DNA of 64,000 bases from contig CAYVQE010000005.1 of the NCBI GenBank assembly GCA_964454005.1, positions 4,404 to 68,403 on the forward strand, in the 5' to 3' direction. The first letter of the stretch is position 1. Each line of letters starts with the position of its first letter. Of the stretch, positions 28,914-59,847 are shown one piece after another. A model generated the notes under the pieces. It made no database searches, was not told the origin of the DNA, and saw only the letters and a list, made by a program, of their open reading frames with translations. The position numbers and the translations under genes were made by a program. Source of the DNA: an uncultured Myxococcales bacterium. GTDB taxonomy: Bacteria > Myxococcota > B64-G9.

Positions 28914-28977
28914 AAAAAACCGCGCAGTACTACTGAGAATCTTTGCGGGACGCGAAGATTCTCGCGGTTAGTAGTAC
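28914..28977 (-). terminator. Long bulged hairpin plus T-run (minus-strand intrinsic terminator between convergent genes)
   Basis: Positions 28927-28947 pair with 28951-28977 as 13 bp plus 8 bp around a 6-nt bulge. On the minus strand the hairpin is followed by gcgcggTTTTTTgg. It overlaps the last codons of the minus gene. Confidence 0.5.
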
Positions 28978-29597
28978 AGCAGGGTGCAGCCGACTACCCC
29001 GGCCACGGTCAGCAGCACGCCCGGAAAGCCGACGCCGCCCATGGCGTCGGTCTCGATTCCGATCCAGAACCGCCGCCGGGGCGTGTGCCAGGTCATGCCC
29101 AGTCCCCCCAGCCAGGACAGCCGGCTGCGGCCGTCGAAGTTTTCGACGCGCACCAGGATGTCCGGCGCCGACCACTGCACGCCGATGCCGCCGCGGGCGA
29201 ACAGATCGAAGCGCTCCAGCGTCCAGCCCAGACGCAGGCCGCCGTGCAGGGCATGGGTGGTAAAGGCGCCGGCGGCCGGCGGATGCGGCTGATCGGTCTC
29301 GTGGAAACCGGCCCGGTAAGCGGCCTCGATGGCCAGGAAATCCCACAGCTCCCAGCCGGCGGCGAAGGTGAAGGCCAGCCCCGGCCGGCTATCGGCGCCC
29401 ACCGCGCCGAGCCAGACCGCCGGGCCCAGGGCCGAGCGCAGGGTCAGCCCGCGGGGCACGCGGTCGGCGGGATCGGGGCAGTCGGCCGGAGCGGTGGCAT
29501 CCTGACCGGCGGACGGTGCCTCGGCGGCGGGTTCCGCCCGGGCGCTGACGGCCGGCGCCGCCATGACGAGCAGCAGGCTGGTCAGCACAGCCCGCAT
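28968..29597 (-). CDS. Outer-membrane beta-barrel-like protein
   Basis: The start MRAVLTSLLLVMAAPAVSARA gives a signal peptide. Alternating amphipathic strands follow, and the C-terminus is aromatic (...LLYY). Confidence 0.6.
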   Translation of the reverse strand: MRAVLTSLLLVMAAPAVSARAEPAAEAPSAGQDATAPADCPDPADRVPRGLTLRSALGPAVWLGAVGADSRPGLAFTFAAGWELWDFLAIEAAYRAGFHETDQPHPPAAGAFTTHALHGGLRLGWTLERFDLFARGGIGVQWSAPDILVRVENFDGRSRLSWLGGLGMTWHTPRRRFWIGIETDAMGGVGFPGVLLTVAGVVGCTLLYY

Positions 29598-29599
29598 GG

Positions 29600-30244
29600 T
29601 CAATCCCCCGGCCGGACGCGCACGGTGACTTCGATGGCCACCGCGGCTTCGGTCGCTTCGTCCAGGCTGACGCCCAGCAGCCAACCCAGCGGTGCCGGGC
29701 TGCCGTCCGGCTCGGTCTCGCACTGCGGGTAGCGGCTCTGGGCGAAGACCAGGTCGGCCTGCTGCAGCTCGGGCTCGCTGAAGGCGTCATCGGTGATCTC
29801 GCCCGGGCCCAGCCGGTGCAGGTGCTCGGCCAGCGGCTCGATGCGCGGCAGGTCGGGCAGCAGGTCCGGCGGCTCGGCGCCGTCGGCCGCGGTCACCCCC
29901 AGCCACACCGTGGCGTTGACCGCCTCGCCCGAGAGGTGGCGCAGCCGGTAGTCGACACGCACCTCCTGCTCGCCGACGGTCAGCACCCGGTAGTCGCAGC
30001 GGCACGGCACCTCGCGCTCGGCTTGGTTCTCGCGGCAGTACTCCAGGTTGTCGTGCTCGCGCTGATCGCTGCGGTCGAGCGGCAGCTCGAAGGTGCGGTA
30101 GGCCGAGCGCTCCTGGATGGCGGTGGGCACTTCCAGGGCGTAGGGCCCGAAGTAGCGTTCGGGCTGACAGCCGCCGGCGACCGCCAGCAGCAAGATGGCG
30201 GCGGCCGGACGGGCGGTGCCGCGGCTGGCTCGAGCGACGCTCAT
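29600..30244 (-). CDS. Lipoprotein, unknown function (position equivalent to GltH/NfsH)
   Basis: The start MSVARAS... precedes the lipobox LLAVAGGC. The gene is coupled by ATGA to the upstream gene and lies 2 nt before the next gene. Confidence 0.5.
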   Translation of the reverse strand: MSVARASRGTARPAAAILLLAVAGGCQPERYFGPYALEVPTAIQERSAYRTFELPLDRSDQREHDNLEYCRENQAEREVPCRCDYRVLTVGEQEVRVDYRLRHLSGEAVNATVWLGVTAADGAEPPDLLPDLPRIEPLAEHLHRLGPGEITDDAFSEPELQQADLVFAQSRYPQCETEPDGSPAPLGWLLGVSLDEATEAAVAIEVTVRVRPGD

Positions 30245-31638
30245 CGGCTGCGTCCGAAGGTGAAGGGGTAGATCACGCGCACCTTGCCTCCCTCGGGGCT
30301 CGGAAACGTCCAGCGCTTGATGAAGCGGATCAGACACGAGGCCACCGCGCGGCCGGCGGCCCGGGGCCGCAGCTTGTTCTGGCCGATCTTGACCGTGCGC
30401 ACCGAACCGTCGGGCTCGATGATGAAATCGACCACCACCTTGCCCTGCAGGGTGGGATAGCGGGTCAGCTTGGACTCGTAGCAGTAGCGGATGGCGCCCT
30501 TGTTGGACTGGACCACCTTGGCGATGGCCGCCTTGGACAGCCGGCCGCCGGTGACCCGGGCCGCGGCGGCCGGCAGCCGCAGCTCGATCGCGGCCGGCTG
30601 GCGGCCGGCCAGCCGGCTGCGCCGGGCCGCCCGGCGGCCGGTGCGGCCGGTGCGCGGCCCGCGGTCGGCCTGGTCGCGGCCGACCGAATCGCCGGCGCGC
30701 CGGGCGCTGACCAGCGGATCGGCGCTGGCGCTGTCGCCGCCCTTGGCGCCGATCACCCGTGCCCGGGCGTTGCGGTCGAGCTGGGCCAGCGCATCGCCGA
30801 GATCCAGGTCGAGCCCGCTCTCGTCGAGCACCTGGGCCAGGGCGCGATCGCGCTTGCGGGCCCGGCCGATGGCGCCGACCACGCCCTTGCGCGCCACCTT
30901 GTCGCGGATGCGGCGCAGCTCGCGCTGATCGGGGGATTCGGCCGCCGCTACCCGCTTGCGCCGCGGTTCGTCCCGCTCGGCCGGCTTGTCCTCGGGCTGC
31001 TGCTTCTGGCGCTCGGCCTTCTTTTCCCGCCGGCGCTCGAGCTCGCGGCGCAGCGCCTTGGCCGATTCGGCGTCGTCGGTGACGAAGGAGACGAAGCGAT
31101 CCGGCAGCTGCTCGATGGTGAACTCGCCCGGCGGCGTGGCGAACAAACGCGAGACCAAAGCCAGCAAGGCGATCACCAGCACGCCGCCGCCGAACAGCTT
31201 GTTGATGTTGGGATCGGCGTCCAACAGCTGGCCCAGCCGCGCCGGCGGCAGCGGCCGCGGCGGGTCGACGAAGTCGAAGGCCAGCCCGGCGTCGCCGAAG
31301 ACCAGCACCCCGCCGTCGCCCGGCGCCAGCCGGTACTCCACCGCGTCGCCGCGCCGGCTGGCCAGGCCGCGGTGGTCGTTGGCCAGATCGGCCACCTCCA
31401 CCGGCCGGCCGCCGATCTGCACCCGGCCAAGCATGCCCGGCACCAGCCGCAGGGTGGCCCCGTCGGCGTCCGGACGCAGCACGGTCAGGCTGCGGCCCGT
31501 CCCGGCCGCCGGCAGGGTGAACGCGGCTCGATGCGACGCGCCCACCGTCACCCGCTCGCCGGGGGCGAACACGCGCTCGTCGAGCAGGGTGTGCTCCCAG
31601 ACCACAGCGCAGCGCAGGTATTTCGCTCGTTCGGCCAT
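30241..31638 (-). CDS. GltG/GltJ-type protein: FHA-like N-domain, one TM helix, charged linker, AgmX/PglI (TonB-C-like) C-terminal domain
   Basis: The start is MAERAKYLRC (ATG 31638). The TM helix is LFGGGVLVIALLALVSRLF. The C-terminus reads GRLSKAAIAKVVQSNKGAIRYCYESKLTRYPTLQGKVVVDFIIEPDGSV, typical of the AgmX/PglI domain. Confidence 0.75.
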   Translation of the reverse strand: MAERAKYLRCAVVWEHTLLDERVFAPGERVTVGASHRAAFTLPAAGTGRSLTVLRPDADGATLRLVPGMLGRVQIGGRPVEVADLANDHRGLASRRGDAVEYRLAPGDGGVLVFGDAGLAFDFVDPPRPLPPARLGQLLDADPNINKLFGGGVLVIALLALVSRLFATPPGEFTIEQLPDRFVSFVTDDAESAKALRRELERRREKKAERQKQQPEDKPAERDEPRRKRVAAAESPDQRELRRIRDKVARKGVVGAIGRARKRDRALAQVLDESGLDLDLGDALAQLDRNARARVIGAKGGDSASADPLVSARRAGDSVGRDQADRGPRTGRTGRRAARRSRLAGRQPAAIELRLPAAAARVTGGRLSKAAIAKVVQSNKGAIRYCYESKLTRYPTLQGKVVVDFIIEPDGSVRTVKIGQNKLRPRAAGRAVASCLIRFIKRWTFPSPEGGKVRVIYPFTFGRSR

Positions 31639-31826
31639 TACAGTCCGCCGCGATTCTCCGCCACCACTGTCAGACGTGTCAAGCGGGCGCCCGGTTCCCT
31701 GATTTCCCACCTCGGCCGCGATCTCTGCGGACCGAAAACCGCATTTCTAACGGGTGTTTTGCATCGTAAGCAATCATGAATTACCATGTCGGGCTGGATG
31801 TGCAACCGCAAATCCGAAGGTGTTGA

Positions 31827-34379
31827 ATGAAGCTCTCGCAGAATTGGTTGACGGTCGTGGCGGGCGTGGCGCTGCTCTGGTTGCCCGCGTGTGGTGGAGA
31901 TTCGGCCTCGCGGACCGACGCGGGGGTCGATGCCGGCATCGATGCCGGAGGCGACGGCGGGCAGGAGCAACCGCCGCTCGAAATCAGGGTTGCCCTGGAC
32001 GAGAGTGTCCAGCCGGAGAGAGAGCTGGTCGAAGGGCCGGAAGAGTGGGGGCCGCGCCAGCTGGCGGCGGTGGCCGACGACGAGGGCGCCGTCTCCAGCT
32101 TCGTGGTCGACGAGCTGGTGCTGGTGTACGAGGAAGCCGGTGAGCTGGATGCGTTCGTCTCCCGCACCGGGGGCACCGTGCTGTTCCAGGTGGAGCCGGA
32201 CGCGGAGGGTGCGGAGGCGCCGGGCATGGCCCTGGTGCGGGTCACCACCGCAGAGCAGGACATCTCCGCCCTGGAAGACGACCTGGTGGCGGTCAACCGC
32301 GCCGCGGGCGTCTTCGGCCAGGCGGAGCTGCGGGTGTCGTCGGCCGACGGCATGCGGCTGGTGGCCCTGGCCAGCTCCGAGGCGCGCTCGGGCGCCGGGG
32401 TGGGCATCAACTTCGTCATGTCGCCTGACGCCATCCCGGGCTCCGCCGAGGAGGCGCCGGTACCGAACACCACCGACGTCTACCACGATGTCTACGAATG
32501 GGACCGCTGGACCCGGGACGGCCCGCTGGCCATCGGGGTGCCCGAGGCCTGGGATCTGCTGTACTACGCGGGCAAGTTGCACAACACGGTGCGGGTGGCG
32601 GTCATGGATCAGGGCTTCACCGCGAACGACGATTTCCAGCGGTGGTCGTCGACCCACGTCTACGGTGGAAGCGGCATGGAGCAGTCTGGAAGCGGAGACA
32701 GCCCCTGGCACGGCACCTGGGTGGCCAGCATCCTCATGGCCCGGCTCGACAACCACTTCGGCTGGGCCGGGGTGGCGGGCCCGGTGAGCCACGGGGTGTT
32801 CATCCACACCCCCTACGACGCGGCCACAGCCAACCTGGCGCTCTACAAGGCCTCGTCGCGCAACGCCCGGATCATCAACATGAGCTTCAGCGGGCGGGTG
32901 CACCACACCCTGAAGTGGGCCCTGCGCTACTATCGGGACAACACCGATCGCCTGCGCAACCGCGGCATCCTGCTGTTCGCCTCGGCCGGCAACGATGGGC
33001 GCAACGTGGATTACGAGAAATGTCTCCAGGGAACCAACTGGTGCTGGGAGACGCATTTCTACTTCCCGTGCGAGAACCCCGGCGTGTACTGCGTGGGCGG
33101 TACGAATGCCTCCGGCGGCAGGCACCAGAGCTCCAACCACGGCAGCCAGAGCGTGGACATCTGGGCGCCGTACGAGGTCTACGTCGGGCCCGATGCCGAC
33201 GACGGGGACGCGAACATTCGCAGGGAGGTCATGGGAACCTCGTTTTCGTCGCCGTTCGTGGCGGGGGTCGCCGCCCTGGTCTGGGCGGCCGATCCTTCTC
33301 TCAGCCGCAGCCAGGTGGCCGAGCTGCTGCTGTCCACCGCCCATCCCCACGGGTACTACAACCGGATCAACGCCTACGACGCCGTGCTGCAGGCGATGGG
33401 GGCGGGGTTCACCGGCCGGATCACCAGCCCCTACGACGGGGCCCGGCTGACGGCCGGCATCCCGGTGACGCTGATGTCCGGGCTCACCGCGGTGGGTGCC
33501 CCGGGAAGCTCCGCGGTGCCGGTGGCGGTGGAGTGGTACACCAGCCCCGGTGGGCTGCTGCACGAGGAGCAGGTGACCATTCCGTTGACCGAAGAAAGCG
33601 GTTACAACACGGCCCAGTCCTCCTGGACCGGAACCCTTGCCGACGACGTTTACGCCATCACCCTGATCACCCGCGCCGACGTGACCCCAGATGGCTGGGG
33701 CGGCCAGGAGATGATCGTGGATCAGGACATGGTGGCGGTCGAGGTGGTCAACCCGCCTCCCGAGGTGAACATCCTCCGGCCCGAACCGGGCTCGTACTGC
33801 CAGGGACAGGTCATCACCTTCCGGGGTAGCGCACAGGACCCGAACGAGACCCTGCCCGACGACGCTTTTTTGTGGATCCTGAACTCGATGAGCAACGCCT
33901 GGTTCCTGCGCATCCTGGGCGAGGCGCCCACCGTGACCGCCGGGAATTTCACGCCCGACGATTACCAGGTGCGCCTGCAGGTGACCGATTCCCGTGGCGC
34001 GATGGGAGAAGACGTACACCAGTTCACCATCCTTTCTTCCTCCCACCCGGACTGCTCGGACCTGCCGCCCCAGGCCACCATCATCCATCCCGGCCAGGGT
34101 GACCGTTTCCAGGTGGACGGGTACGACGCGGACGGCAACTACAAGGATCTCATCCTGCAGGCCACAGCCACCGATCCCGAGGATGACGACGCCACCTTGC
34201 TGCTGGAGTGGTTCTCGGACACCGACGGCAAGCTGGGTGAGGGCGAAAACCTGGACGCGCGCATCCACATGACCGAGCAGTGCGCCCAGGACATCACCGT
34301 CCGCCTGGAGGTCACCGACTCGGATCAGAACATGACCCACGACGAGGTGACCATCAACCTGTGGTACGTGTGCAAATAG
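31827..34379 (+). CDS. S8 (subtilisin-like) serine peptidase lipoprotein with C-terminal PKD/Ig-like repeats
   Basis: The lipobox is LWLPACGG. The catalytic residues are D in VAVMDQGF, H in HGTWVASI, N in SAGNDG and S in GTSFSSPFVAG. About three beta-sandwich repeats follow. Confidence 0.85.
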   Translation: MKLSQNWLTVVAGVALLWLPACGGDSASRTDAGVDAGIDAGGDGGQEQPPLEIRVALDESVQPERELVEGPEEWGPRQLAAVADDEGAVSSFVVDELVLVYEEAGELDAFVSRTGGTVLFQVEPDAEGAEAPGMALVRVTTAEQDISALEDDLVAVNRAAGVFGQAELRVSSADGMRLVALASSEARSGAGVGINFVMSPDAIPGSAEEAPVPNTTDVYHDVYEWDRWTRDGPLAIGVPEAWDLLYYAGKLHNTVRVAVMDQGFTANDDFQRWSSTHVYGGSGMEQSGSGDSPWHGTWVASILMARLDNHFGWAGVAGPVSHGVFIHTPYDAATANLALYKASSRNARIINMSFSGRVHHTLKWALRYYRDNTDRLRNRGILLFASAGNDGRNVDYEKCLQGTNWCWETHFYFPCENPGVYCVGGTNASGGRHQSSNHGSQSVDIWAPYEVYVGPDADDGDANIRREVMGTSFSSPFVAGVAALVWAADPSLSRSQVAELLLSTAHPHGYYNRINAYDAVLQAMGAGFTGRITSPYDGARLTAGIPVTLMSGLTAVGAPGSSAVPVAVEWYTSPGGLLHEEQVTIPLTEESGYNTAQSSWTGTLADDVYAITLITRADVTPDGWGGQEMIVDQDMVAVEVVNPPPEVNILRPEPGSYCQGQVITFRGSAQDPNETLPDDAFLWILNSMSNAWFLRILGEAPTVTAGNFTPDDYQVRLQVTDSRGAMGEDVHQFTILSSSHPDCSDLPPQATIIHPGQGDRFQVDGYDADGNYKDLILQATATDPEDDDATLLLEWFSDTDGKLGEGENLDARIHMTEQCAQDITVRLEVTDSDQNMTHDEVTINLWYVCK

Positions 34380-34512
34380 AGCAGGGAGGTCGACATCGAC
34401 CGTTGCTCGTAACCGCGACGCCTGGATAAGTCGGCAAAACGAAATCAGGTCAAAAATTCCTATAGGACTTATTGCGCAGAGGACCATGGCATATCGCAAA
34501 GGAGGGTGCGAA

Positions 34513-35223
34513 ATGCAGACAGCAAGTCACAAGAGTTGGCTCGCCTTGATCCTGGCGATGGCGCTGGCCGGTACCGGCTGCGACAAGAAAGACAAGGAGC
34601 CCGCCACCGATCCCGGCCCCGCCGGCGAACCGTCCGGGAAAAGAGCAGATGCCCCCGGGGGTAGCGGTCCGTTCGCAGGCTTCGACCTGGGTGCCATCAA
34701 GACCAGGCTGGAGGGTGCCTGGGTGCTGGGCGGCTCCTCTCTCGGCAAGAAGGAAGCCTGGCAGGTCAGCGGCTCGGAGGTGACCGTCTACGACGGAAAG
34801 TCCGAGAAGAAACACGAACTCTCGCTGGTGGCCCCGTGCTACGGAAAGCTCACCTGCGAGGAAGGCGGGGGCACCACCAGCAACTACTTCACATTCGCCT
34901 TCGACGGCGACACCCTCTACAAGGGGCTGGGCCAGGCCGGCCTCAAGAAGGGTGACACGATCGTGGCGTGCATCTCGGGCGAGATCTTCACCTTGCAGGA
35001 CGGCAAGTGCCAGAAGTGGAAGGAATCCATGTTCGGCGACAAGCTCAAGAGTGCGGACGCCGAATGCGCGCTGGAAGGCGATGTCTTCAAGGCCAAGACC
35101 CGCAGCGGCGAAAGCGAACTCGAGATCGAGGGTACAGTGCTGCTCAACCAGCAGATGGCAAAAAACCAGGCCGTCAAGACCACCGACTTCGCCGAAGCCA
35201 AGTCCAAGATCGATGCCGAATAG
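34513..35223 (+). CDS. Lipoprotein, unknown function
   Basis: The RBS AAAGGAGGG precedes MQTASHKSWLALILAMALAGTGC (lipobox). The protein is Lys-rich and the gene is visibly less GC-rich than its surroundings. Confidence 0.6.
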   Translation: MQTASHKSWLALILAMALAGTGCDKKDKEPATDPGPAGEPSGKRADAPGGSGPFAGFDLGAIKTRLEGAWVLGGSSLGKKEAWQVSGSEVTVYDGKSEKKHELSLVAPCYGKLTCEEGGGTTSNYFTFAFDGDTLYKGLGQAGLKKGDTIVACISGEIFTLQDGKCQKWKESMFGDKLKSADAECALEGDVFKAKTRSGESELEIEGTVLLNQQMAKNQAVKTTDFAEAKSKIDAE

Positions 35224-35358
35224 ACATGCTGGAACTGGATACCGGGCCGGTCACCTTGAGTCGTCTTACGTCCTTCCACTCGAAGAAGGCCCTGGGTCCC
35301 ATGGAAAAGACCAGTGTGAGCCCTTCCTGCGACAACCCGAACCCGGCTGCCACAGTGC

Positions 35359-36810
35359 TCACGGCGACGGGAAAACCCGGAAAAACATTTTCGGCTCGTT
35401 CGAACGCCTGGGGGGCTCTGGACGTACCACCTGCCGGACCAGCAAGACGGGACGCTCGGTATCGCTGTCGATTCCGAACAGGAGGTCCAGGATGTGTACG
35501 CCTTGTCCGGGGACAGAGGGGGGACATCGCAGCCGGTATGCGCATGCCTTCGAATACCGGCTCTCGATCCGCTTGACATAGGCGACGAGAGTCTCGTTGT
35601 TCCTGAGATGTTCCGGCACACGGTCTGCAAAGCGAAGGAAGTCGTGGTCGATCGTCTCCGATTTTACCACCGTACAACCGTTCTCGAGGATGTTCTTGTA
35701 GGCTTTCGCCAGCCGACGTCCGTATTTCGTTCCTGATTCAACGAGATGTTCCACAATCGACTTCTCTTCCTTGTCGGCCTCTTTCAATCCGGCCTTCACG
35801 GCGCGTCGTTGCCGAGGTGGGCCCATTCCCTTGCATGACGAAAGACACGATTCGATGACACCGATTTTGGTCTCGAACAGCTCGGCATACGCCTCCCCGT
35901 TCCCCTCCTGCGAGGCTTGGTGCGCCAGCTCATACCATCTGCCTGCAGGCGTCTCTCCCAGCTCCGGATGTGCGGGCTCGAATTGCTCGAGATACCCGGC
36001 CGCGTTTTCGTTCCCCAACTCCCGGGCCCACTCCAGGGCGGTTTTTCCTCTTTTGTCCATGGTGTTTGGATCGGCGCCGTGATCGACCAGGAGCTTGCAT
36101 ATGTCGGCATAGTCGTGCCAGGCAGCTGCGATCAGCGGCGTCTGTCCCCCGGAGTCCTTGCTGTCGACGGTCGCGCCCTTTTCCAGAAGCAGCCTGACCG
36201 CCTCCAGGTTCCCGGACCCCGCCGCTCTGTGCAGGGGCGTGTCCTCGGTCAAGTCCTTTTCGTTCACATCCATGCCGTTATCGATCAGCACCCCGCAAAT
36301 CTCCGTACTGCCGTGTTCCGCAGCCATGTGAAGCGTTCCCTTGAACACATCGTTCTTCGGGTCTGCGCCCCGTTCGATGAAGAACTTGCAGATCGTGACG
36401 TGTCCGTACTTCGCGGCAAAATGCAAAGGAGTGTCTCCTCTCTTGTCGCGCAGGTCCATCCTGGCCCCGTGTTGCACCAGCAGTTCGACGGCATCGCTGT
36501 ACTCGGCATAGCACAAAGCCGTCTCGTGAAGGGGGGTTCGGCCTTGCTTGTTGGTCGCGTCCACGTTGGCGCCATGTTCCAGCAGGAATCTGCACACCTC
36601 GGTCTTTTTGCTCCGGGCGGCGTAGTGGAGGGGGGTGTTGCCGGAATCGTCTTTTGCGTTCACCAGGGAAGGGTTTTCCTCGACGAGCTTTCTGGCCTCG
36701 TCCAGGTCAGGCTTCTGCGCGGCGATGTGGATCCGGCCGGCAACCACGACCGCGGGCAATGACCACAACGACAGACCGAGCACCAACAACAGCAACCTGC
36801 GTACTTGCAT
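35359..36810 (-). CDS. Secreted ankyrin-repeat protein with unknown C-terminal domain
   Basis: The start MQVRRLLLLVLGLSLWSLPAVVVAG gives a signal peptide. About 7 ANK repeats follow (GNTPLHYAA, GRTPLHETA, GDTPLHFAA, GTLHMAAEHG, DTPLHRAA, GQTPLIAAA, GKTALEWA). The gene has low GC. Confidence 0.85.
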   Translation of the reverse strand: MQVRRLLLLVLGLSLWSLPAVVVAGRIHIAAQKPDLDEARKLVEENPSLVNAKDDSGNTPLHYAARSKKTEVCRFLLEHGANVDATNKQGRTPLHETALCYAEYSDAVELLVQHGARMDLRDKRGDTPLHFAAKYGHVTICKFFIERGADPKNDVFKGTLHMAAEHGSTEICGVLIDNGMDVNEKDLTEDTPLHRAAGSGNLEAVRLLLEKGATVDSKDSGGQTPLIAAAWHDYADICKLLVDHGADPNTMDKRGKTALEWARELGNENAAGYLEQFEPAHPELGETPAGRWYELAHQASQEGNGEAYAELFETKIGVIESCLSSCKGMGPPRQRRAVKAGLKEADKEEKSIVEHLVESGTKYGRRLAKAYKNILENGCTVVKSETIDHDFLRFADRVPEHLRNNETLVAYVKRIESRYSKACAYRLRCPPSVPGQGVHILDLLFGIDSDTERPVLLVRQVVRPEPPRRSNEPKMFFRVFPSP

Positions 36811-37044
36811 GACGTTCTCCATGGGACTGGATTGCGGTTCTTCCATGTTTTCGCAATCATTCATACCGTCCGTGCGATTCGATCGTCAACCGAGAGCAAG
36901 GGTCCATACGAGTAGTTGCCGGTGGGCCGTCGAGATCATTTGCCGGTGCATAGACTCCAACGCTGCCCGACCTTTTTGGTTGCGGCGGCGGTTCTCGCCG
37001 TGCCATGCAGAGGGGCGATTCCACGAACCGAGGAGGCCGACAGC

Positions 37045-39399: not shown

Positions 39400-39526
39400 G
39401 CGAATCCTCTCGGAAACCGGCTTTCTCGTCCCAGCCGCACGGGCGGGCATGAAGCCCGCCTGCGTCCCGAAGGGTCTTGAGCGGGAACCGTTTGCCGACA
39501 TGGCCTTCGGTCGCAGAGGCTTCACC

Positions 39527-43900: not shown

Positions 43901-44060
43901 CGCGCCGCTGCATCTGCTGCTCCAGCCAGCCGGGCTGTCCGGGCTGCAGCGGGCAGCGCCCCGGCGGCTGCGGCCCGGCGGGATCGGCCTGACCGACGGC
44001 GGCCAGCGACAAGGCGAGCGCGGTGACGATGGCGCGCAGCGCTGTGCTACTCGTACTCAT
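40968..44060 (-). CDS. Large TPR scaffold protein (GltD/AgmU/NfsD-like)
   Basis: The 1030-aa protein has a signal peptide. It is clearly a paralog of 59848..63444, sharing blocks such as SFVPDAHLAIGEHYF / RFVPDAYLAMGEHYF, ALYKTAWCH / ALYKLGWCD and WASAALFRIGDMY / WSIAALVRVAQIN. Confidence 0.75.
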   Translation of the reverse strand: MSTSSTALRAIVTALALSLAAVGQADPAGPQPPGRCPLQPGQPGWLEQQMQRREAELARQRDRAIALIEAFLERHPDALQRADALFRLAELQWERAEAQLLERMRRYEAELDAFRAGQSATRPPEPRIDLGASLDVYEEILRQHPDFERSDTVLYLYGFALNEQGDEAAALGIFRSLLKRFPQSSFVPDAHLAIGEHYFAKGRFAAALKAYAKVLEHVDSPLYDLALYKTAWCHFKRDRAAQAAEYFKRVLARARQRKRQQPDERLPTPSADLEREALEDLAFTFSEYGGAAEAYRFMAQVGGEEYSIRVLERLGQVFFRQARYDQAIDSYRLLVERFPLAEDSPEHQLRIALAYERQGEMERSLAERRRLAERYGPGSSFAQHHTENPPVRDRALELAEQALRFAALTRHKQAQQRRDEKAYRKARAAYGAYLDRFADTDEAPRIRYYLGEVLFELGDYAGAAGHYRQAAETLAEPKERRDAAYAAVLSWDRLRRQDERPDEPPAEAQPLDRAERGFVAAVEAYAAIAADDPKLAQLRFELGRTYYDRGHFDRAAETLLALVRRRPADEFAAPAADLALDCFSRNRQWGELERWARRFIDEGWFASSELGEQLPGFAAGAIFQQAAALVERERLVKAAREYERLVADYPDSELAPKALFNAAVNLERAGEKRAAIERYQRVIKRYPARAADALYVIAGVYEKQYDYAAAAEAYERFAERFSDDRRAAECLLQASLLHRARKAPEREAAALAAFGRRFGDHPKAPSARFRQAEALVRAGDHGAAERVLRDYLRRHARRQGRVREATLQLGLALVAQSKRRQAERQFERCAAFRPRRAPEGGELAAAAHCRFQLGELEFDAYQRIALRPPMKRLTRLLSQKAARLKRAEALFTRVIQAGHPEWASAALFRIGDMYAAFAKAIYNAPMPEGLSPRELEVYRQELQSLAFPIEDKALNAFTVSHRVALKHAYYSVWTRRTVERLRQLDPARFPPEPEVRPNPRWADSFTDFGLALERREPPPLPPAGAAEEAE

Positions 44061-45924
44061 CCGGCCACAGCTCTCCGTCGTAGGGCCAGTACTCGCTCTG
44101 GTCGTCGAGCAGGCCCGCCTCGGCCAGCTCGCGCAACAGGCTCAGCGGGTAGCGGCCGAGCGCCAGGTTCTGCACCTCGGTCTCGAGCGCCTGCTTGCGC
44201 GCGGTGACCGTATCGATCCGGCCCAGGGCCGAGCGCCGGGCCCAGCCAGCCACCCGCCGCGCGCATCGCCGCCGGCGGTCTTCGGCCGTCTGCACCAGCA
44301 AACGCCCGGCCCGGGTGCGCAGGCCGACCAGCGTCCGGATCGACCGGTCGAGCCAGGCCCGCTCGGCCTTCAGGTAGCCCACCGGAACCGACCCGCCGGC
44401 GGCGGCGGTCACCGGCCCCGCGGGCGGCCGGCCGCCGAGCACCGCCGCCAGGGCGCGGTCGGCCCGGGCGGCGGCCTGCTGCACCTCGGCCTGCAGCCGG
44501 TGCAGCGCCTCGAGCTTGGACTGCTCGTTTTCGGCCCGGCCCAGCCGGGCGCGCAGATCGGCCAGGCGTTGTTCGAGGCCGCGGGCCCGGGAGCGGGTAC
44601 GCCGCAGCCGGTCGGCCAGCGCCGCGGCCGGCCGCGGCCGTTGCCGGCGCGGCATGCCCGAACCGACCCGGGCCAGCTCGGCCCGCAGCCAGCGGCTGCG
44701 GCCCAGGCTCTCGGCCAGCCCTGCCCACAGCCGCTGCGTCCGCGCCTCGGCGCGGCTGGGCGGCACCCAGGCGCGGACTTGCCGCGGCAGCCGCTGGGTG
44801 CCGGCCGGGTCGGCCACTGCGGCTGCCAGGGATGTCTGGCGCTGCTCGATGCGCTCGAACAGCGCCTGGGCCTGGTCGAACAGGCAGTCGCCCAGCAGGG
44901 CGTAGCCGAGCAGCAGCCGCGCCATAGGCGCCTCGGCCAGCCCGGGGGCGGTGAGCAGCAGCCGGCGCAGTTGGTGGCGGGACCGGCCCAGCGCATCCAG
45001 CCGGTAGAGCGACCAGGCCTTCTCGTAGCGCGCCCGTTCGACCGCCCGCGCATCGCCCGCCACCTGGTCGTAGGTGGCGATGGCCCGGGCGTGGTCGCCG
45101 CGGTCGTGGCGCAGCCGGGCCAGCGCCAGCCAGGCGTGGGCCACCACCCGCTCGGCGTCGGCCGACAGATAGAAGGTGGTCTGCCGGCGGCCGCCGCCGC
45201 GCACCAGCGCGCAGAAATCTTCCTCGGCCCGTTCGCGCTCGCCGTGGGCCAGGGCGTCGAGCCCGGCCAGGTAGCGGGCCGCGGCGAACAACCGGCTGGA
45301 ACGGCCGACCTCGTCGAGCGCCGCTCGGGCCTGCTCGCGGTGGCCCAGCTGCACCAGGGCCTTGCCCCGCAGGTAGGCCAGCTCATCGGCCTCGGCCGGT
45401 TCGGGTTCGAAGCCCAGCTGGCGCAGCGCTTCCAGGGTTTGCGGGATCCGATCGGCGCGCAGCGACAGGTCGACCAGCTTGCGAAAGGCCGGCGCGCGAA
45501 AGTGCGACGGGGGCCGGCGGCGGATCAGCTCCAGCAGCAGGCCGCGGGCGCTGGCCAGGGCGGATTGGCGTTCGAGGGCTCCGGCCAAATGGTAGCGCAG
45601 GTTGTCGTGGGCCGGGCTGCCGGCCAGCGGGCGGAAGGCCGGATCGAGCAGTACCGCACCGAAGCGGGCGGCCGTGGAGCGGGCGCCGCCGTCGAGGTAG
45701 ACCGCCTCGCCGGCGCGCAGCACCGCCTGCAGCCGCTCGGCGCCGGCCGGCGGGCCGATGCGGTCGTTCTGGCGCAGCCAGGTCAACAGGGCCGCGCCCG
45801 GGTCGGCTCCGGGCGACGGCAACGGCGCCGGGCCGGCGACCGCCGGTGCCGCCGGGCCGAGCAAGGTGCAGGCGGCCAGCAGCCCGGCCAGGCGCCGCCG
45901 TCGGATGGGCCGCACGCAGCTCAA
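44047..45924 (-). CDS. TPR/helical-repeat secreted protein (GltC/NfsC-like)
   Basis: The 625-aa protein has a TTG (or GTG 45915) start overlapping the upstream stop. Its C-terminal tail SEYWPYDGELWPDEYE parallels ETYNYWKFVKEYWRDELGYY in 58216..59811. Confidence 0.6.
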   Translation of the reverse strand: MSCVRPIRRRRLAGLLAACTLLGPAAPAVAGPAPLPSPGADPGAALLTWLRQNDRIGPPAGAERLQAVLRAGEAVYLDGGARSTAARFGAVLLDPAFRPLAGSPAHDNLRYHLAGALERQSALASARGLLLELIRRRPPSHFRAPAFRKLVDLSLRADRIPQTLEALRQLGFEPEPAEADELAYLRGKALVQLGHREQARAALDEVGRSSRLFAAARYLAGLDALAHGERERAEEDFCALVRGGGRRQTTFYLSADAERVVAHAWLALARLRHDRGDHARAIATYDQVAGDARAVERARYEKAWSLYRLDALGRSRHQLRRLLLTAPGLAEAPMARLLLGYALLGDCLFDQAQALFERIEQRQTSLAAAVADPAGTQRLPRQVRAWVPPSRAEARTQRLWAGLAESLGRSRWLRAELARVGSGMPRRQRPRPAAALADRLRRTRSRARGLEQRLADLRARLGRAENEQSKLEALHRLQAEVQQAAARADRALAAVLGGRPPAGPVTAAAGGSVPVGYLKAERAWLDRSIRTLVGLRTRAGRLLVQTAEDRRRRCARRVAGWARRSALGRIDTVTARKQALETEVQNLALGRYPLSLLRELAEAGLLDDQSEYWPYDGELWPDEYE

Positions 45925-46559
45925 TCCACCGGCTCCGTCTCGCTCTGGGCGTGGAATTCCACCTCCCAGGCGACCTCGGGCCGGTCGCCGCGCAGCGCCT
46001 CGGCGTCCGGCGCCTCGCCGTCCTGCTCGGCCTCGAACTCCACCCGGGTCACGGCCTGGGCGCGCAGGTGGACGGCCAACCCGGCCGCCGCGGTATAGGC
46101 CGGCACGGTCGCCGGCGTACCGTCCGGCCCGCGGGCCCAGAGCCGCACCTCGACCACGTGGCGGCCCGGCGGCAGGTGGCCGTCGAACAGCGCCAGCGCC
46201 TGGGCGCTGGGCGCCTGCTCGAACTCGCGCCGGTGGGCCAGCTCGCCGTCGAGGCGCATCTCCACCGCGGCCAGCCGAAAGGGCGACTCCAACTCACCGC
46301 GGTAGCGCACCTCGAGCCGGGCGTCGTAGAGCTTCTCGGCCAGCAGCGCCAGCCGGGACTCGGCCGCCAACAGCGCGTCGCGGGCCCGGGAGTGCTCGAG
46401 TTCGAGCTCGGCCAGAGCGCGGGCGTCGAGTTCAGGTGCGGCCGGCTCCGATTCGGCCGGCGGCGCGTCGTCGGGCCCGGCGATCGTGCGGCCAGCGGTC
46501 AGCGCCAGCAGCGCCCCGGTGCCCAGCAGCAATCCCATCGACCAGGTTCTCGTGCGCAT
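45921..46559 (-). CDS. Secreted protein, unknown function
   Basis: The 212-aa protein has the signal peptide MRTRTWSMGLLLGTGALLALTAG. A coiled-coil-like segment and then a beta-rich segment follow. I recognise no family. Confidence 0.5.
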   Translation of the reverse strand: MRTRTWSMGLLLGTGALLALTAGRTIAGPDDAPPAESEPAAPELDARALAELELEHSRARDALLAAESRLALLAEKLYDARLEVRYRGELESPFRLAAVEMRLDGELAHRREFEQAPSAQALALFDGHLPPGRHVVEVRLWARGPDGTPATVPAYTAAAGLAVHLRAQAVTRVEFEAEQDGEAPDAEALRGDRPEVAWEVEFHAQSETEPVD

Positions 46560-46592
46560 GTCGTTCTCCGTCGTCGCCTGCGGCGGTCGGCC

Positions 46593-47960
46593 CTAGAAGC
46601 CGGCCGTCAGGCCGAGCCAGCCGCCGTAGTGCCAGCCGCCGGCGAAGGCCAGCCGGCCGCCGGCCGCGCCCGGTGCGGCATAGCGGGTGAAGCCGTTGTC
46701 GCCGGCCAGGCCCTCGAAGTTGAAGTCCTCGCGCAACAGCCGCGCCACCAAGCGCAGCTCCAGATGGCGCAGGAATCCCAGCAGCCGGCCGCGCTCGGGC
46801 AGCAGGCGCAGCCGCAACCCGATCCGGGCCCACCAGCTCAGGCAGGCAGCCAGGCTGCGATCGGCTGTCCAGTAGGCGCCGGCAGGACCGCCGGGGTAGT
46901 CGTCGCGGTAGAAGTTGGCCCGGATGCGGTGGGCCGCGCCGCCGTGAAGCTCGAGCGTCAGCCGGCGGCCCAGCCGCTGCAGCCAACCCAGCTGGGCCTG
47001 GCTATGCTCGACCCGCCAAGAACCGGTGCCCCAGCCGGCCCCCAGCTCGGCGGCCGCGCTCCAGGTCGGGATGGCGAAGCGCGCCCGCAGCAGCGCGCCC
47101 CAGCGCATCCGCGCCGGCGGGTGCTGTTCCGGCCGCGCGCGCGGGACGGTGGCCGGGGCCGGGCCGTCCACCGCCGGCCAGTGGCTCCACAGGGTGACCC
47201 AGCGGTAGGGGCTCTGCATGAAGCCCTCCTCGAGCAGGCCGGCCAACTCCAGGCGCAGGTTGATGCCCGGCAAGAAGCCCTGCTCGACGGCGGCCACGAT
47301 GCGATCGCTGGTCCGTTCGGCGGCGACCGCTTCCAGGGCCGGGCCCTGGCCGGCCGCCAGCCGCAGCCGCTGCATGGTTCGGCGGTAGGCCAGCTCGACC
47401 ACGGTGTCGCTGCCCAGCACCAGGGTGCGGGCGCTGATGGCCGGTGCGTGGACGTCGCCGTCGAAAGCGGTGCGGTAGCGGTAGCCGGCCCGCAGTACGC
47501 TGGTGCCGTCGTCGTAGACCAGCGCGGCCACCGGCCCGTGGGCCAGCCGGTCGAGTTGCAGCCGCCCGCGGAAGCCGTCGAAGCGGAAGATCCGCCGCCG
47601 CTCGAGGCTCTGGGTATAGCCGGCCTCCAGGCCGAAGCCGGCCGCCAGCTCGACCGCCGCCCGGGCCTCGGTGTCGAACCACAGGCCGTCGGCCTGGGCG
47701 CCGGGCTCGGCTGCGGTGCGCACCCGCAGCCGGGCGGTGTCGGTCGGCAGCGGGCGCAGGTCGGGCTCCGGCGGCGCGCTCGGCGCGTGCACCGGGCGGC
47801 CCGGCTCGAAGCGCATCAGCGGATCGGCCAGCACCTCGCGCGCCACCAACCGCTCGGCGCTGCAGCCGGCGGTGGCCAGCGCGACCAGGCCGGCCAGACC
47901 GACCACTCCGATCAACCCGCCGGCCGGGCGCCGGCCGCGGCGGCGGCCGGGCGGCTTCAG
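46593..47960 (-). CDS. Predicted outer-membrane beta-barrel lipoprotein, unknown family (start uncertain)
   Basis: The lipobox is VALATAGC and the C-terminus is aromatic (...LGLTAGF). The listed ORF 46593..48674 overlaps the whole upstream gene. Plausible starts are CTG 47960, TTG 47915 or GTG 47906. Confidence 0.5.
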   Translation of the reverse strand: MKPPGRRRGRRPAGGLIGVVGLAGLVALATAGCSAERLVAREVLADPLMRFEPGRPVHAPSAPPEPDLRPLPTDTARLRVRTAAEPGAQADGLWFDTEARAAVELAAGFGLEAGYTQSLERRRIFRFDGFRGRLQLDRLAHGPVAALVYDDGTSVLRAGYRYRTAFDGDVHAPAISARTLVLGSDTVVELAYRRTMQRLRLAAGQGPALEAVAAERTSDRIVAAVEQGFLPGINLRLELAGLLEEGFMQSPYRWVTLWSHWPAVDGPAPATVPRARPEQHPPARMRWGALLRARFAIPTWSAAAELGAGWGTGSWRVEHSQAQLGWLQRLGRRLTLELHGGAAHRIRANFYRDDYPGGPAGAYWTADRSLAACLSWWARIGLRLRLLPERGRLLGFLRHLELRLVARLLREDFNFEGLAGDNGFTRYAAPGAAGGRLAFAGGWHYGGWLGLTAGF

Positions 47961-48661
47961 CTGGAGTCCAGCGGCAGCCAAAAACCGACCCCCAGGCTGA
48001 GCACCAGGTTGTTGGTCACGGCGTCGGAGCCGAGCAGCTCCTGGACGGTGATCTGATCGCGCAGATCCAGCCGCAGCGACAACCAGCTGGTGGTGAAGAT
48101 CTTGATCCCGGCGCCGAAGCTGTAGGTCAGCCCCTTGGCGGTGCGGCTGTCGGTCACCCCGGCGCCGGCGGTGAGGTAGATGTCGAAATGGGGGATCAGC
48201 GTGCGGAACAGCATGAACTTGCCGTGGATCGGGTGCCAGACCAGGTTGCCGCTGTAGATGCGCGCCGTATGATCCGCCAGCACCCGGTAGCCGCTGACCC
48301 GCTCGACCGGCCGCCGGACCTTGGACGACAGCCAGGTCATGCCGAAGCGCGCCTCGATGGCGAAGCTCTCGTCGATGTGGAAGGTATAGTTGATGCCCGC
48401 CAGCGGCGCCGCCCCCATCACGTCGCTGGCGTAGACCCCGCCCGCCAGACCGATCTCGTGGCGCAGGCTCTTGATGAAGTTGCGCCGGGCCAACCCCTTG
48501 CGACCGCCCTGGTCGGTCTCGGGCGGCTCCGGGCAGCGGGACCGGCCGGCCGCCGGGACCAGGCAGAGCGCGAGAAACAGACCGAGCAGGCCGAACGCCG
48601 GCCAACGCCGGCGGTGGATGGCGGCGTGTTCGGCAGGGCTGATCGGGTGGTGGCGGTTCAT
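47957..48661 (-). CDS. GltA/GltB-type outer-membrane beta-barrel protein
   Basis: It shares blocks with the 56622 and 57392 genes: HFDIYLTAGAGV versus FHFYLVAGAGV and VDFYLTAGGGV, and WLSLRLDLRDQ versus WSLRIEIRDH and WFAIRLEIRDY. Confidence 0.65.
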   Translation of the reverse strand: MNRHHPISPAEHAAIHRRRWPAFGLLGLFLALCLVPAAGRSRCPEPPETDQGGRKGLARRNFIKSLRHEIGLAGGVYASDVMGAAPLAGINYTFHIDESFAIEARFGMTWLSSKVRRPVERVSGYRVLADHTARIYSGNLVWHPIHGKFMLFRTLIPHFDIYLTAGAGVTDSRTAKGLTYSFGAGIKIFTTSWLSLRLDLRDQITVQELLGSDAVTNNLVLSLGVGFWLPLDSS

Positions 48662-48692
48662 CGGCGGCTCGCATCCCTTCCGGCGTCCGGTA

Positions 48693-49469
48693 TCAAAACG
48701 ACAGCATCAGCCCCGCGCTGAAGCTGAACACGCCGACCAGCTCCTCGGCGTCGAAGGCCAGCAGCTGCCGGGCATCGAGCCGCAGGCCGAAGCCGCCGCG
48801 CAGCGCCAGCAGCAGGCCACCGCCGGCGCTGACCAGCGGGCGGGTGCTGGCGGCGAACAGGGCGTTGCCGCGGTGGGGCAGGGTGGTCGCCGCCCCGCCG
48901 CCGACGGCGATGAACGGCACCAGGCAACGCCAGGGACCCACCGCCACCAGCAGCTCGGCGCCGTAGATCAGCACGCTGCCCAGGTGGCCGGCCGACTGGC
49001 CCAGCACGGCCTCGATCATCCAGTGCCGGCTCGGCTGGTAGCCGAGCCGCAGGCTGAACAGGCCGTCGCGATCGAGCACGCCGCCGGCCAGGGTGGCGCT
49101 GAGCGCGCCGCCGGCCAGCTGCTCGGTGGCCAACAGGTGCTCGAACAGCCAGCGCTCGACCGCGCCCGGACCGGTCGGATCGGCCACCTCGAAGGGCCAC
49201 ACCAGCTCGGCCAGCACCCAACCGCTGATGCCCCGGGCCAGCCGGATTCGGTACCAGTCGCCATCCGGGGCCCGATCGAGGGCCTCGAAGACCTGGCCGC
49301 GACCCACCCGGCCGACCTCGCGGAAGCTGCCGCCGGGGCCGGCGCGCACCGGCACGCTGGGGGCCATGGCCCGCAGATGTACATCACGGCCGGCCAGATC
49401 GGCCGCCCAGCCGGCGGCCGCCTGGACGAGCAGCCCGAGTAGAACGATCGGGACGGCGATCGGCCTCAT
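48693..49469 (-). CDS. SH3b-domain protein fused to a GltA/B-type beta-barrel
   Basis: After the signal peptide comes an SH3_3-like segment (VPVRAGPGGSFREVGRVGRGQVFEALDRAPDGDWYRIRLARGISGWV). Barrel blocks follow (FIAVGGGAAT, GFGLRLDARQL), ending in ...LMLSF. Confidence 0.6.
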   Translation of the reverse strand: MRPIAVPIVLLGLLVQAAAGWAADLAGRDVHLRAMAPSVPVRAGPGGSFREVGRVGRGQVFEALDRAPDGDWYRIRLARGISGWVLAELVWPFEVADPTGPGAVERWLFEHLLATEQLAGGALSATLAGGVLDRDGLFSLRLGYQPSRHWMIEAVLGQSAGHLGSVLIYGAELLVAVGPWRCLVPFIAVGGGAATTLPHRGNALFAASTRPLVSAGGGLLLALRGGFGLRLDARQLLAFDAEELVGVFSFSAGLMLSF

Positions 49470-49960
49470 CGGTCACCACCGGCATCGCGCAGCCAGTCCA
49501 GGATGGCGACCAGTTGTTCGTCGCCGAGCGCATCGCCGCCCGGGTGGGCGGGCTGCTCGCCGCCGCCCCACAGCAGCAGCGGGCTGAGTTCGGGGCGGTC
49601 CAGCAGGCAGTAGCCGAGCACCGTGTAATAGCCGCTACGGAAGGGCTCTTCCAGCTCCCCGGGGTGGGCCACCACGGTGTCGGGCGGCAGCGCCTGGGCG
49701 GCCGCGACGAGCTGCAGCCCGCCCGGCCGGCCGTGGCAGGCGGCGGTGGCGCAGCCGTCGGCCAGGGCGGGGTGGATGTGCAGCGCGTAGCTGCGGGCGT
49801 CGGGCAGCTGCTTCGACGCCGCCAGGCTCGAACGGCCCGGATCGACCGGTCCGCAGCCCGCTGCCGCGGCCAACCCGGCCAGCAGCAGCGTCCAGGCCGC
49901 AGCCACCGGGCGCCGGTGCGCCGGGCTCGTGGAACCACTGTGGGCGTCGCATGGCGGCAA
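49466..49960 (-). CDS. Lipoprotein, first gene of the minus-strand Glt/Nfs-like operon
   Basis: The gene has a TTG start with an AAGGTG RBS and the lipobox LAAAAGC. It contains the motif IHPALADGCATAACHG and is coupled by ATGA to the next gene. Confidence 0.5.
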   Translation of the reverse strand: MPPCDAHSGSTSPAHRRPVAAAWTLLLAGLAAAAGCGPVDPGRSSLAASKQLPDARSYALHIHPALADGCATAACHGRPGGLQLVAAAQALPPDTVVAHPGELEEPFRSGYYTVLGYCLLDRPELSPLLLWGGGEQPAHPGGDALGDEQLVAILDWLRDAGGDR

Positions 49961-51553: not shown

Positions 51554-53113
<1,560 letters not shown>

Positions 53114-57368: not shown

Positions 57369-57391
57369 TATCCGAGGCGAGGGAAAAGACC

Positions 57392-58177: not shown

Positions 58178-58215
58178 GGTCCGGGCGCGGACCCCGAGGG
58201 AGGTCGACGATTCCC

Positions 58216-59811: not shown

Positions 59812-59847
59812 CGAACACCAGTCACCGGGAGCGTGCGGAGGACATCC

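Follow-up and report, generated by a model that had tools for sequence, protein, structure and literature searches.

Do two runs of minus-strand genes in a 64,000-nucleotide stretch of DNA from an uncultured Myxococcales bacterium (GenBank assembly GCA_964454005.1, contig CAYVQE010000005.1; the whole stretch is termed the window) encode a single envelope-spanning machine, and how would this machine relate to the Agl-Glt gliding and Nfs spore-coat complexes of Myxococcus xanthus? The runs contain nine genes (g1 to g9) and three genes (g10 to g12). The original prediction, made from the sequence alone, read them as a divergent Glt/Nfs-like cluster split in two and as a third variant of the family. 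We consider it probable that g1-g12 constitute one conserved operon encoding a paralog of the Myxococcus Agl-Glt/Nfs trans-envelope complexes. The 12 genes are as follows (TPR, tetratricopeptide repeat; TM, transmembrane; values in parentheses are E values and bit scores).

g1, 49466..49960, minus strand: small lipoprotein, cytochrome-c-like, with a lipobox, a CX4CH motif and an HPGG motif
g2, 48693..49469, minus strand: secreted protein of 258 aa with an SH3b domain (SH3_3, 4.8e-10) and a C-terminal GltA/B-type outer-membrane barrel
g3, 47957..48661, minus strand: GltA/B-type outer-membrane beta-barrel of 234 aa (TIGR04565 OMP_myx_plus, 1.7e-35, 122.4 bits versus a cutoff of 60)
g4, 46593..47981, minus strand: large beta-barrel lipoprotein of 462 aa, of the DUF3570 family by orthologue matches to PF12094
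g5, 45921..46559, minus strand: secreted protein of 212 aa, with a long helix and a beta-rich domain
g6, 44047..45924, minus strand: GltC-like secreted TPR protein of 625 aa (NCBIfam GltC, 5.3e-16, 58.5 bits versus a cutoff of 450)
g7, 40968..44060, minus strand: GltD/AgmU-like periplasmic TPR protein of 1030 aa, with full-length GltD-type homology
g8, 39808..40971, minus strand: GltE-like TPR lipoprotein of 387 aa with a lipobox (NCBIfam GltE, 1.7e-36, 126.1 bits versus a cutoff of 225)
g9, 39527..39811, minus strand: GltF-like small secreted protein of 94 aa with a signal peptide
g10, 30241..31638, minus strand: GltG-like bitopic inner-membrane protein of 465 aa, with a predicted FHA-fold domain in the cytoplasm, one TM helix and, after a linker, a TonB-C-like (AgmX/PglI) domain in the periplasm
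g11, 29600..30244, minus strand: clade-specific lipoprotein of 214 aa with a CXC motif
g12, 28968..29597, minus strand: small CglE/GltH-like outer-membrane beta-barrel of 209 aa (NCBIfam CglE, 7.4e-13, 48.7 bits versus a cutoff of 70)

The arrangement of nine coupled and three further minus-strand genes given by the original prediction was borne out by the list of open reading frames (ORFs), by the translations and by the profile of GC content at third codon positions (GC3), which reaches 0.84 to 0.94 in the cluster genes, with a GC content of ∼70% across the window. The nine co-directional genes g1-g9 occupy 49960 to 39527, with spacings between consecutive genes of -4, +31, -25, +33, -4, -14, -4, and -4 nt, and g10-g12 occupy 31638 to 28968, where the spacings are -4 and +2 nt; the g9-g10 gap of 7,888 nt contains four genes. 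One gene start had to be revised: position 47960, given earlier for g4 (455 aa), is a CTG codon, and the most likely start is the TTG at 47981 (462 aa), whose context agrees with the gene calls in two relatives. The g1 gene may start at 49906 instead of 49960, which gives a length of 146 to 164 aa. The 12 genes are real and under purifying selection, with ratios of nonsynonymous to synonymous substitution rates (dN/dS) of 0.15 to 0.43 for every one of them, calculated against a relative with 92% nucleotide identity to the window.

We then looked into the organization of the cluster in other genomes. A scan of species-representative genomes yielded 16 loci, all from metagenome-assembled genomes (MAGs) of uncultured Myxococcota or "Deltaproteobacteria." The g1-g9 genes were contiguous and in invariant order in 13 species-level loci sharing 45 to 70% protein identity. 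In the loci L001/L012, L010, L013, and L016, all 12 genes were contiguous, with g10 starting 33 to 92 nt after g9. Wherever g10-g12 were found, the window included, they were co-directional and followed downstream by an enolase gene. That the two halves belong together, as first proposed, is thus supported by four relatives with 12 contiguous genes, and the synteny did not show the halves as independent loci. In L002, the relative with 92% nucleotide identity, the enolase and M20 peptidase genes are separated by a gene for a MASE11-HisKA histidine kinase (21396-22907), which the window lacks at the corresponding position (∼27444-27454).

The DNA between g9 and g10 has the following content, as assigned with Pfam and NCBIfam.

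31684..39402, no strand assigned: whole insert, with the four genes below
36916-39399, plus strand: TonB-dependent receptor
35359-36864, minus strand: ankyrin-repeat protein
34486-35223, plus strand: hypothetical protein of 245 aa
31827-34379, plus strand: S8 peptidase

The GC content drops to 0.60 in part of this gap. A block of 5.6 kb (31684-37303) is specific to the window, as the relative with 92% nucleotide identity has the receptor alone. It comprises the S8 peptidase gene, the hypothetical gene, and the ankyrin gene, and the receptor gene has had its 5' end replaced by it; this block looks like a recent horizontal insertion. What the same junction holds differs between genomes: L002 has the receptor alone, in L007 a receptor is accompanied by another gene, L008 has 1.7 kb, and L011 has 7 kb that include an IS3-type transposase. 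Larger inserts are present in L014, L017, and L019, where g10-g12 were not within the flank examined. From contiguity in relatives, the varying inserts, and the dN/dS values, we conclude that g1-g12 are one operon with a variable junction, at which a lineage-specific insertion has produced the split. The split noted in the original prediction is not a feature of the system.

Two further observations concern the split region. A sigma-70-like site (TTGACA-18 nt-GAGAAT, 31653-31682, minus strand), located where the insertion borders the operon, has its end 15 nt upstream of g10. Only this one match occurred in 11.5 kb, compared to 0.9 expected by chance, and a scan of the split region for promoters and terminators gave counts not above chance. 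The receptor gene is divergent from the TonB-C-like g10 in three genomes (36916-39399, plus strand, in the window; 14654-16954 in L002; 16873-19173 in L007). The receptor shows partial similarity to the heme/hemoglobin-receptor subfamily, and the distant L007 receptor is 52% identical. The recurrent adjacency of the receptor and g10 may be a coincidence or a functional link.

We next analyzed the relation of the encoded proteins to known systems. Besides Glt and Nfs, Luciano et al. (2011) catalogued the paralogous clusters G4, G5, and M2 of M. xanthus, without known function, and reported several paralogous clusters per genome in other Myxococcales and in Bdellovibrio (PMC3169522). A Hyalangium locus (L004) has the gene order mglB-mglA-308 aa-C-D-E-F-G and MglA is MXAN_1925 (PMC4316618), and this locus therefore corresponds to G4 (MXAN_1922). 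Hidden Markov models (HMMs) of the clade were built from 13 orthologous loci. The HMMs of g6, g7, g8, g9, and g10 matched the C, D, E, F, and G genes, in this order, in four other cluster types: the Hyalangium G4 ortholog (L004), sister clusters (L024 and L018), Nfs-type clusters (L021 to L023), and the gammaproteobacterial core cluster (L026). Profiles and clade HMMs thus agree with the earlier assignment to a Glt/Nfs-family envelope-spanning system, with the order K-position lipoprotein, barrel, barrel, further genes, C-D-E-F-G, further genes, barrel.

The putative periplasmic core is covered by g6 to g9. The g6 HMM matched the C homologs of the sister cluster (9e-70), G4, and the Nfs-type and gammaproteobacterial clusters. 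No dedicated curated model exists for g7, and its HMM cross-matched GltD-type proteins at 1e-125 to 1e-202; g7 also contains many YbgF-like repeats (TIGR02795, 4e-52). It is collinear over ∼1000 residues with a second GltD homolog of the window (26% identity, 4e-113). The match of g8 spans positions 64 to 353 of the 411 of the GltE model. A core that reads VRVYRFD..LD.EG..K.P is strongly conserved in g9, and its HMM matched the F-position gene in G4 (3e-9), in sister clusters (1e-13), and in Nfs-type clusters (6e-4).

The g5 gene had been listed among the additional genes of a new variant, together with the 455-aa barrel g4. The clade HMM of g5 matched the gene directly upstream of the GltC homolog in the Hyalangium G4 locus (1.2e-6), in L018 (6e-9), and in L024 (3e-16); it had no match in Nfs-type or gammaproteobacterial core clusters. 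As g5 is common to G4-type and sister clusters and its HMM does not match Nfs-type clusters, it is by these profiles a hallmark of the non-Glt/Nfs paralogs and not a novelty, and the claim does not hold for this gene; g4 is additional to Glt and Nfs, and it is a member of the DUF3570 family. We also considered g5 as an additional gene of the gammaproteobacterial core complex and rejected this, there being no HMM match. The single-sequence AlphaFold2 (AF2) model of g5 was of low confidence, with a predicted local distance difference test (pLDDT) score of 59.5.

The g10 protein matched the AgmX/PglI C-terminal domain (NF033768) with 96.1 bits versus a cutoff of 40 and positions 206 to 647 of the GltG model at 7e-39 (133.8 bits versus a cutoff of 650). 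In the AF2 model (27 sequences; mean pLDDT, 70.9), residues 1 to 125 are folded as a beta-sandwich (pLDDT, 85 to 93) and residues 143 to 166 as a TM helix; a pLDDT of ∼90 is reached in the C-terminal domain. The top Foldseek matches in the PDB were TonB C-terminal domains and FHA domains. The N terminus aligned with residues 229 to 370 of the Nfs-type G protein, outside the canonical FHA domain of NfsG. No Pfam FHA match was obtained on g10 or any of 37 homologs, and the canonical G-R and S-x-x-H positions of FHA domains were not conserved in the homolog alignment, as judged by eye. The earlier description of g10 as an FHA-like TonB-C protein thus stands for the AgmX/PglI domain and for the predicted fold, and it does not extend to a Pfam FHA domain: the N terminus is FHA-like at the level of the modeled fold only. 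Searching the PDB by sequence produced no meaningful match for g10, g4, or g5.

The outer-membrane parts are those in which the cluster departs most from its relatives in gene content. g1 had no significant match in Pfam or NCBIfam, the best Pfam hit being Cytochrome_CBB3 at 0.13. The CX4CH motif (residues ∼52 to 58 of the 146-aa form) was nevertheless present in 14/14 orthologs, with a conserved HPGG downstream. The g1 family is tiny, with 25 representatives among 1.84 billion, and every member covering the region has CX4CH. The two most distant relatives carry a canonical CXXCH at this position and match PSCyt1 (1.2e-18) or Cytochrome_CBB3/PccH. From these motifs, g1 probably derived from a mono-heme cytochrome c. 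The C terminus of g2 weakly matched OMP_myx_plus (1.7e-05; 24.9 bits, below the cutoff of 60). The gene was found in all loci of the clade, and its SH3 fusion was not seen in the sister, G4, or Nfs-type clusters compared. The g3 HMM matched both barrels in the sister cluster and in Nfs-type clusters.

PF12094 was matched by 9/10 g4 orthologs (best, 9.6e-14) and by the window copy itself at only 0.012; the clade HMM of g4 matched an annotated DUF3570 protein at 3.6e-15, and the lipobox Cys is invariant among the orthologs. DUF3570 proteins are substrates of ApbE flavinylation in redox clusters (Meheust et al., 2021; PMC8238504). The flavinylation motif [S/T]GA[S/T] was found in 0/14 g4 orthologs, and ApbE was not found among the window genes scanned with Pfam. 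A role of g4 as a flavinylated DUF3570 protein was rejected on the absence of motifs from the 14 orthologs. g11, which always lies between g10 and g12 in the loci of relatives, had no family match in profile scans; its alignment contains conserved ERYFGPY, PCxCDY, and AEHxH motifs and two further conserved Cys residues, and the Cys/His motifs suggest a redox or metal site. OMP_b-brl was matched by 4/6 g12 orthologs (best, 1.7e-8). The clade-specific parts are the g1 cytochrome-c-like lipoprotein, the SH3b-barrel fusion, the CXC-motif lipoprotein, and the CglE-like barrel.

To place the cluster, we calculated a neighbor-joining tree of 58 GltD-type proteins. The g7 clade was recovered with 100% bootstrap support, as was a sister clade with Haliangium ochraceum; the grouping of the two reached 62%, and such deep nodes are poorly resolved by this simple distance method. 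A G4 group excluding g7 had 100% support and a Glt/Nfs clade excluding g7 had 98%, the latter holding the second GltD copy of the window and a protein from M. stipitatus. The g7 clade is thus distinct from Glt and Nfs in the GltD phylogeny, as anticipated. The cluster has the traits of the Glt/Nfs family, namely, a GltD/AgmU-like protein, a GltG-like protein with TonB-C, the C-D-E-F-G order, and an OMP_myx_plus barrel, and on the tree and profiles it is assigned to this family as a member phylogenetically distinct from Glt and Nfs.

An assignment as Nfs ortholog does not fit, with g7 outside the Glt/Nfs clade and the A-H layout plus an L3-like gene located in the second cluster of the window instead. 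The G4 type fits in part: C is preceded by a g5-like gene, and G is short (447 and 465 aa) and has no canonical FHA domain, but g7 falls outside the G4 clade, and no Robl_LC7 or Arf-like gene was found near the g1-g12 cluster in the window or in relatives. By sequence comparison, g1-g12 represents a separate lineage confined to uncultured Myxococcota, neither a Glt/Nfs ortholog nor the mglBA-linked G4 type. The original count of a "third" variant was incorrect, since G4, G5, and M2 had already been catalogued in 2011 (PMC3169522): the clade is distinct, though paralogs of its kind have been known since then. We found no description of the architecture of the g1-g12 cluster in the literature searched and no functional characterization of G4/G5 and Glt paralogs.

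A second, canonical cluster (from ∼56.6 kb to the window end) and an additional gene, g0 (50477-51391), had been overlooked earlier. These and the kinase gene next to g0 are located as follows.

50477..51391, minus strand: g0, ∼304 aa, acidic, Pro-rich, with one C-terminal TM helix, ∼0.5 kb from g1
51554..53113, plus strand: Ser/Thr kinase with a C-terminal PEGA domain (Pkinase, 2.9e-33; PEGA, 3.6e-10)
56622..64000, plus strand, running off the window end: second Glt/Nfs-type cluster, with barrels and GltC-, GltD-, and GltE-like genes
56622-57368 and 57389-58177, plus strand: the two barrels of the second cluster (OMP_myx_plus, 4e-27)
58216-59811, plus strand: GltC-like protein (GltC, 1.8e-70, 238 bits, compared to 58 for g6)
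59848-63444, plus strand: GltD homolog of 1198 aa
63490 to the window end, plus strand: GltE-like lipoprotein, of which only the start is in the window

The two clusters are divergent and 6.6 kb apart. In a relative with 95% identity, the second cluster extends to the E and F genes, a G protein of 659 aa, and the barrel protein H, which is the nfsA-H layout, and in a relative with 63% identity its G protein has a canonical FHA domain. The M. stipitatus locus with the nearest cultured homolog has the same A-H order and a ribosomal-L3-like gene directly upstream. The two clusters are still linked in a relative whose GltD identity is as low as 55%, and the neighboring canonical cluster makes g1-g12 a true extra paralog. 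The kinase neighbor was also found in L001, L002, L006, and L027 and beside the sister-clade cluster L024. It is the first gene of a module between the clusters (51554-56328, plus strand) that further encodes a 273-aa coiled-coil protein, a 531-aa protein without family, and a 218-aa ribosomal-L3-like protein; this module may be a regulatory link. g0 was located upstream of g1 also in L001, L002, L006, L014, and L017 and may be a thirteenth component.

Elsewhere in the window, we noted genes typical of anaerobes: an MttB-family methyltransferase with a corrinoid protein and a RACo activase (2801-9941, plus strand) and an HdrA/FlpD-like, CCG-domain, DsrC-like set (18405-23140, minus strand). 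These genes suggest an anaerobic or facultative lifestyle of this Myxococcota lineage.

We then looked for a motor. The 64-kb window yielded no MotA/ExbB/TolQ or ExbD/TolR gene, either by Pfam scans of the 44 called genes or by jackhmmer with AglR/ExbD homologs on six-frame ORFs, so that the reported lack of TolQR/AglRQS-type genes was confirmed by both methods. Its use as a sign of a new variant was not: the aglRQS motor genes of M. xanthus (cluster M1) are located apart from the glt clusters G1 and G2 (PMC3169522), and because they are unlinked there too, the absence of linked motor genes is not diagnostic. The AglRQS motor also drives the Nfs complex (PMC12288465). In L016, we noticed an ORF of 270 aa (21034-21846, minus strand) whose N-terminal membrane region resembles MotA/ExbB and whose C-terminal tail resembles ExbD; we rejected it as a linked motor, as it is isolated, 2.6 kb past the enolase gene, with a transposase-like gene between.

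From these data, we propose the following machine. g10 is the predicted inner-membrane anchor, with its TonB-C-like domain in the periplasm and a degenerate FHA-fold domain in the cytoplasm, and g6, g7, and g8, together with g9 and g5, form a predicted periplasmic TPR scaffold. The barrels g2 (with an SH3b domain of the peptidoglycan-binding type), g3, g4, and g12 and the lipoproteins g1 and g11 make up an enlarged predicted outer-membrane module. By homology, a proton-driven stator of the TolQR/ExbBD type, encoded elsewhere, would energize g10, and the force would pass through the TPR scaffold to the outer-membrane module, moving or positioning a surface-exposed cargo. The operon was cut at the g9-g10 junction by the TonB-dependent receptor gene first and by the low-GC block of 5.6 kb later, both halves staying intact and under purifying selection.

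With a canonical Nfs-type cluster next door, it can be argued that the g1-g12 paralog does something else. A more specific version of this idea, which we regard as rather doubtful, is a functionally distinct fourth class, in which a Glt core would have gained an outer-membrane module of its own (the g4, g1, g11, and g12 products and the g2 barrel, held to peptidoglycan by its SH3b domain). In uncultured Myxococcota that live anaerobically, this machine would couple motor-driven envelope transport to a surface component that is active in redox reactions or senses them, its job being neither gliding nor spore-coat assembly, which would be left to the canonical neighbor.

Several findings weigh against the proposal of a Glt/Nfs-type machine. 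Neither the window nor the regions within 10 kb of the cluster in relatives contain motor genes, apart from the atypical MotA-like ORF of L016, and energization is purely what we infer. All scores for Glt equivalogs were far below the NCBIfam cutoffs (GltC, 58.5/450; GltE, 126.1/225; GltG, 133.8/650; CglE, 48.7/70); no g1-g12 protein qualifies as a Glt equivalog, and the curated profiles support the assignments at the family level only. In the clade-HMM comparison, g1, the SH3 fusion of g2, g11, and g12 had no counterpart in the characterized systems, and the outer-membrane module cannot be mapped onto GltABHK. The Foldseek matches of g10 were individually weak, none at E ≤ 1e-3, and all carriers of the cluster are uncultured MAGs.

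We weighed these points together with four other explanations. The two halves could be independent, g1-g9 being one system and g10-g12 serving, for example, the adjacent TonB-dependent receptor. The gap of 7.9 kb with its four unrelated genes would fit this, as would the loci L014, L017, and L019, in whose examined flank g10-g12 were not found, and the promoter-like site 15 nt upstream of g10, although one match compares to 0.9 expected by chance in 11.5 kb. The four relatives in which g10 follows g9 by 33 to 92 nt speak against it, as do the canonical C-D-E-F-G order in every related cluster type and the constant co-direction of g10-g12 ahead of enolase; synteny largely refutes this explanation, and we judge it highly improbable. 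If the receptor is instead taken as the client of g10, the cluster could be a Tol-Pal- or TonB-like uptake or envelope-integrity system, with g10 as a TonB paralog and TPR proteins like YbgF/CpoB. The YbgF-like repeats of g7, the TonB_C-like domain of g10, and the divergent receptor that the window, L002, and the more distant L007 have beside g10 are compatible with such a system, but most relatives lack the receptor, the homology between g7 and GltD is full length and includes the non-TPR regions, and the combination of C-D-E-F-G with OMP_myx_plus barrels is diagnostic for Glt-family systems. The cluster contains neither a TolB nor a Pal gene, and we find this possibility very unlikely.

More plausible, though still improbable, is a redox-active or redox-sensing envelope machine in which g1, g4, and g11 would derive from DUF3570/DUF4266/thioredoxin extracytosolic electron-transfer systems grafted onto a Glt core. 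The invariant CX4CH in g1, with distant CXXCH relatives that match PSCyt1 and Cytochrome_CBB3, the membership of g4 in DUF3570, an ApbE flavinylation substrate family (PMC8238504), the CXC of g11, and the anaerobe-type redox genes of the host genome would all be in line with it. Against this stand the lack of [S/T]GA[S/T] in the g4 orthologs, the g1 match of 0.13 at best to a cytochrome Pfam family, and the scans of the window, which detected neither ApbE nor DsbD nor thioredoxin genes. A split by mobile or foreign DNA and the low Glt equivalog scores could also be read as decay of a nonfunctional duplicate of the neighboring canonical cluster, disrupted by insertions. However, the ORFs are intact, with strong GC3 and dN/dS values of 0.15 to 0.43 in each gene, order and content are kept in 13 species-level genomes at 45 to 70% protein identity, and g7 is not a recent duplicate of the neighboring D (26% identity, separate clades), which leaves decay with next to no likelihood. 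One operon encoding a Glt/Nfs-family paralog thus remains the explanation that we favor.

To our knowledge, the Glt and Nfs machines are the only characterized motor-driven complexes that move along the bacterial envelope, and we know of no function assigned to G4 and G5 since 2011. In relatives, a single contiguous operon of 12 genes holds the complete set of modules for the inner membrane, the periplasm, and the outer membrane, and so shows what the parts of one system are; the g5-like protein marks the non-Glt/Nfs paralogs. The g1-g12 cluster, the canonical Nfs-type cluster, and the kinase gene between them form a conserved super-locus of divergent arrangement, and the two clusters are a natural pair for comparing machine specialization. 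To judge from the cytochrome-like and DUF3570 parts, the cargo or signal may differ from all those known in the Glt/Nfs family. The sister cluster in the cultured H. ochraceum provides an experimental entry point.

Finally, we compared the g1-g12 cluster with the known systems. With the Nfs (NfsA-H) and Agl-Glt (GltA-K) systems of M. xanthus, it shares the C-D-E-F-G order, OMP_myx_plus barrels before this core and a small barrel after it, an inner-membrane G protein with a TonB-C-like (AgmX/PglI) domain, and the lack of linked motor genes (PMC3169522). It differs from both in that D is outside the Glt/Nfs clade (98%), G has no canonical N-terminal FHA domain, and g1, g4, g5, g11, and the SH3b fusion on g2 are added. 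No GltI or GltJ homolog was seen, and a true Nfs-type cluster coexists with it in the same window.

The G4 cluster, examined through the Hyalangium locus, likewise has a g5-like gene directly upstream of C, the C-D-E-F-G core, and a short G (∼450 aa) without canonical FHA domain; in contrast to g1-g12, it is mglBA-linked and has no barrels, DUF3570 protein, or lipoproteins within 10 kb on either side, and its D proteins form a separate 100% group excluding g7, with only ∼31% identity. The sister clade (H. ochraceum P0044 and the MAG locus L024) contains the nearest relatives of g7 (31 to 35% identity; joint clade, 62%) and shares two barrels, a g5-like gene, and C-D-E-F-G, with a Ser/Thr kinase-PEGA gene and a DUF3570 gene nearby. 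There, however, the DUF3570 gene is outside the operon, a 108-aa gene follows G, and g1, the SH3b fusion, g11, and g12 are missing. Flavinylated DUF3570 redox clusters (PMC8238504) have in common with g1-g12 the PF12094 match of the g4 orthologs, whereas g4 lacks [S/T]GA[S/T] and has no ApbE, DUF4266, or thioredoxin neighbors in the window. The gammaproteobacterial core complex, in which gltCDEG and aglRQS form one operon (PMC3169522), has homologous C, D, E, and G proteins; it combines them with MotA/ExbD motor genes and no outer-membrane barrels, and the g1-g12 cluster is the reverse.

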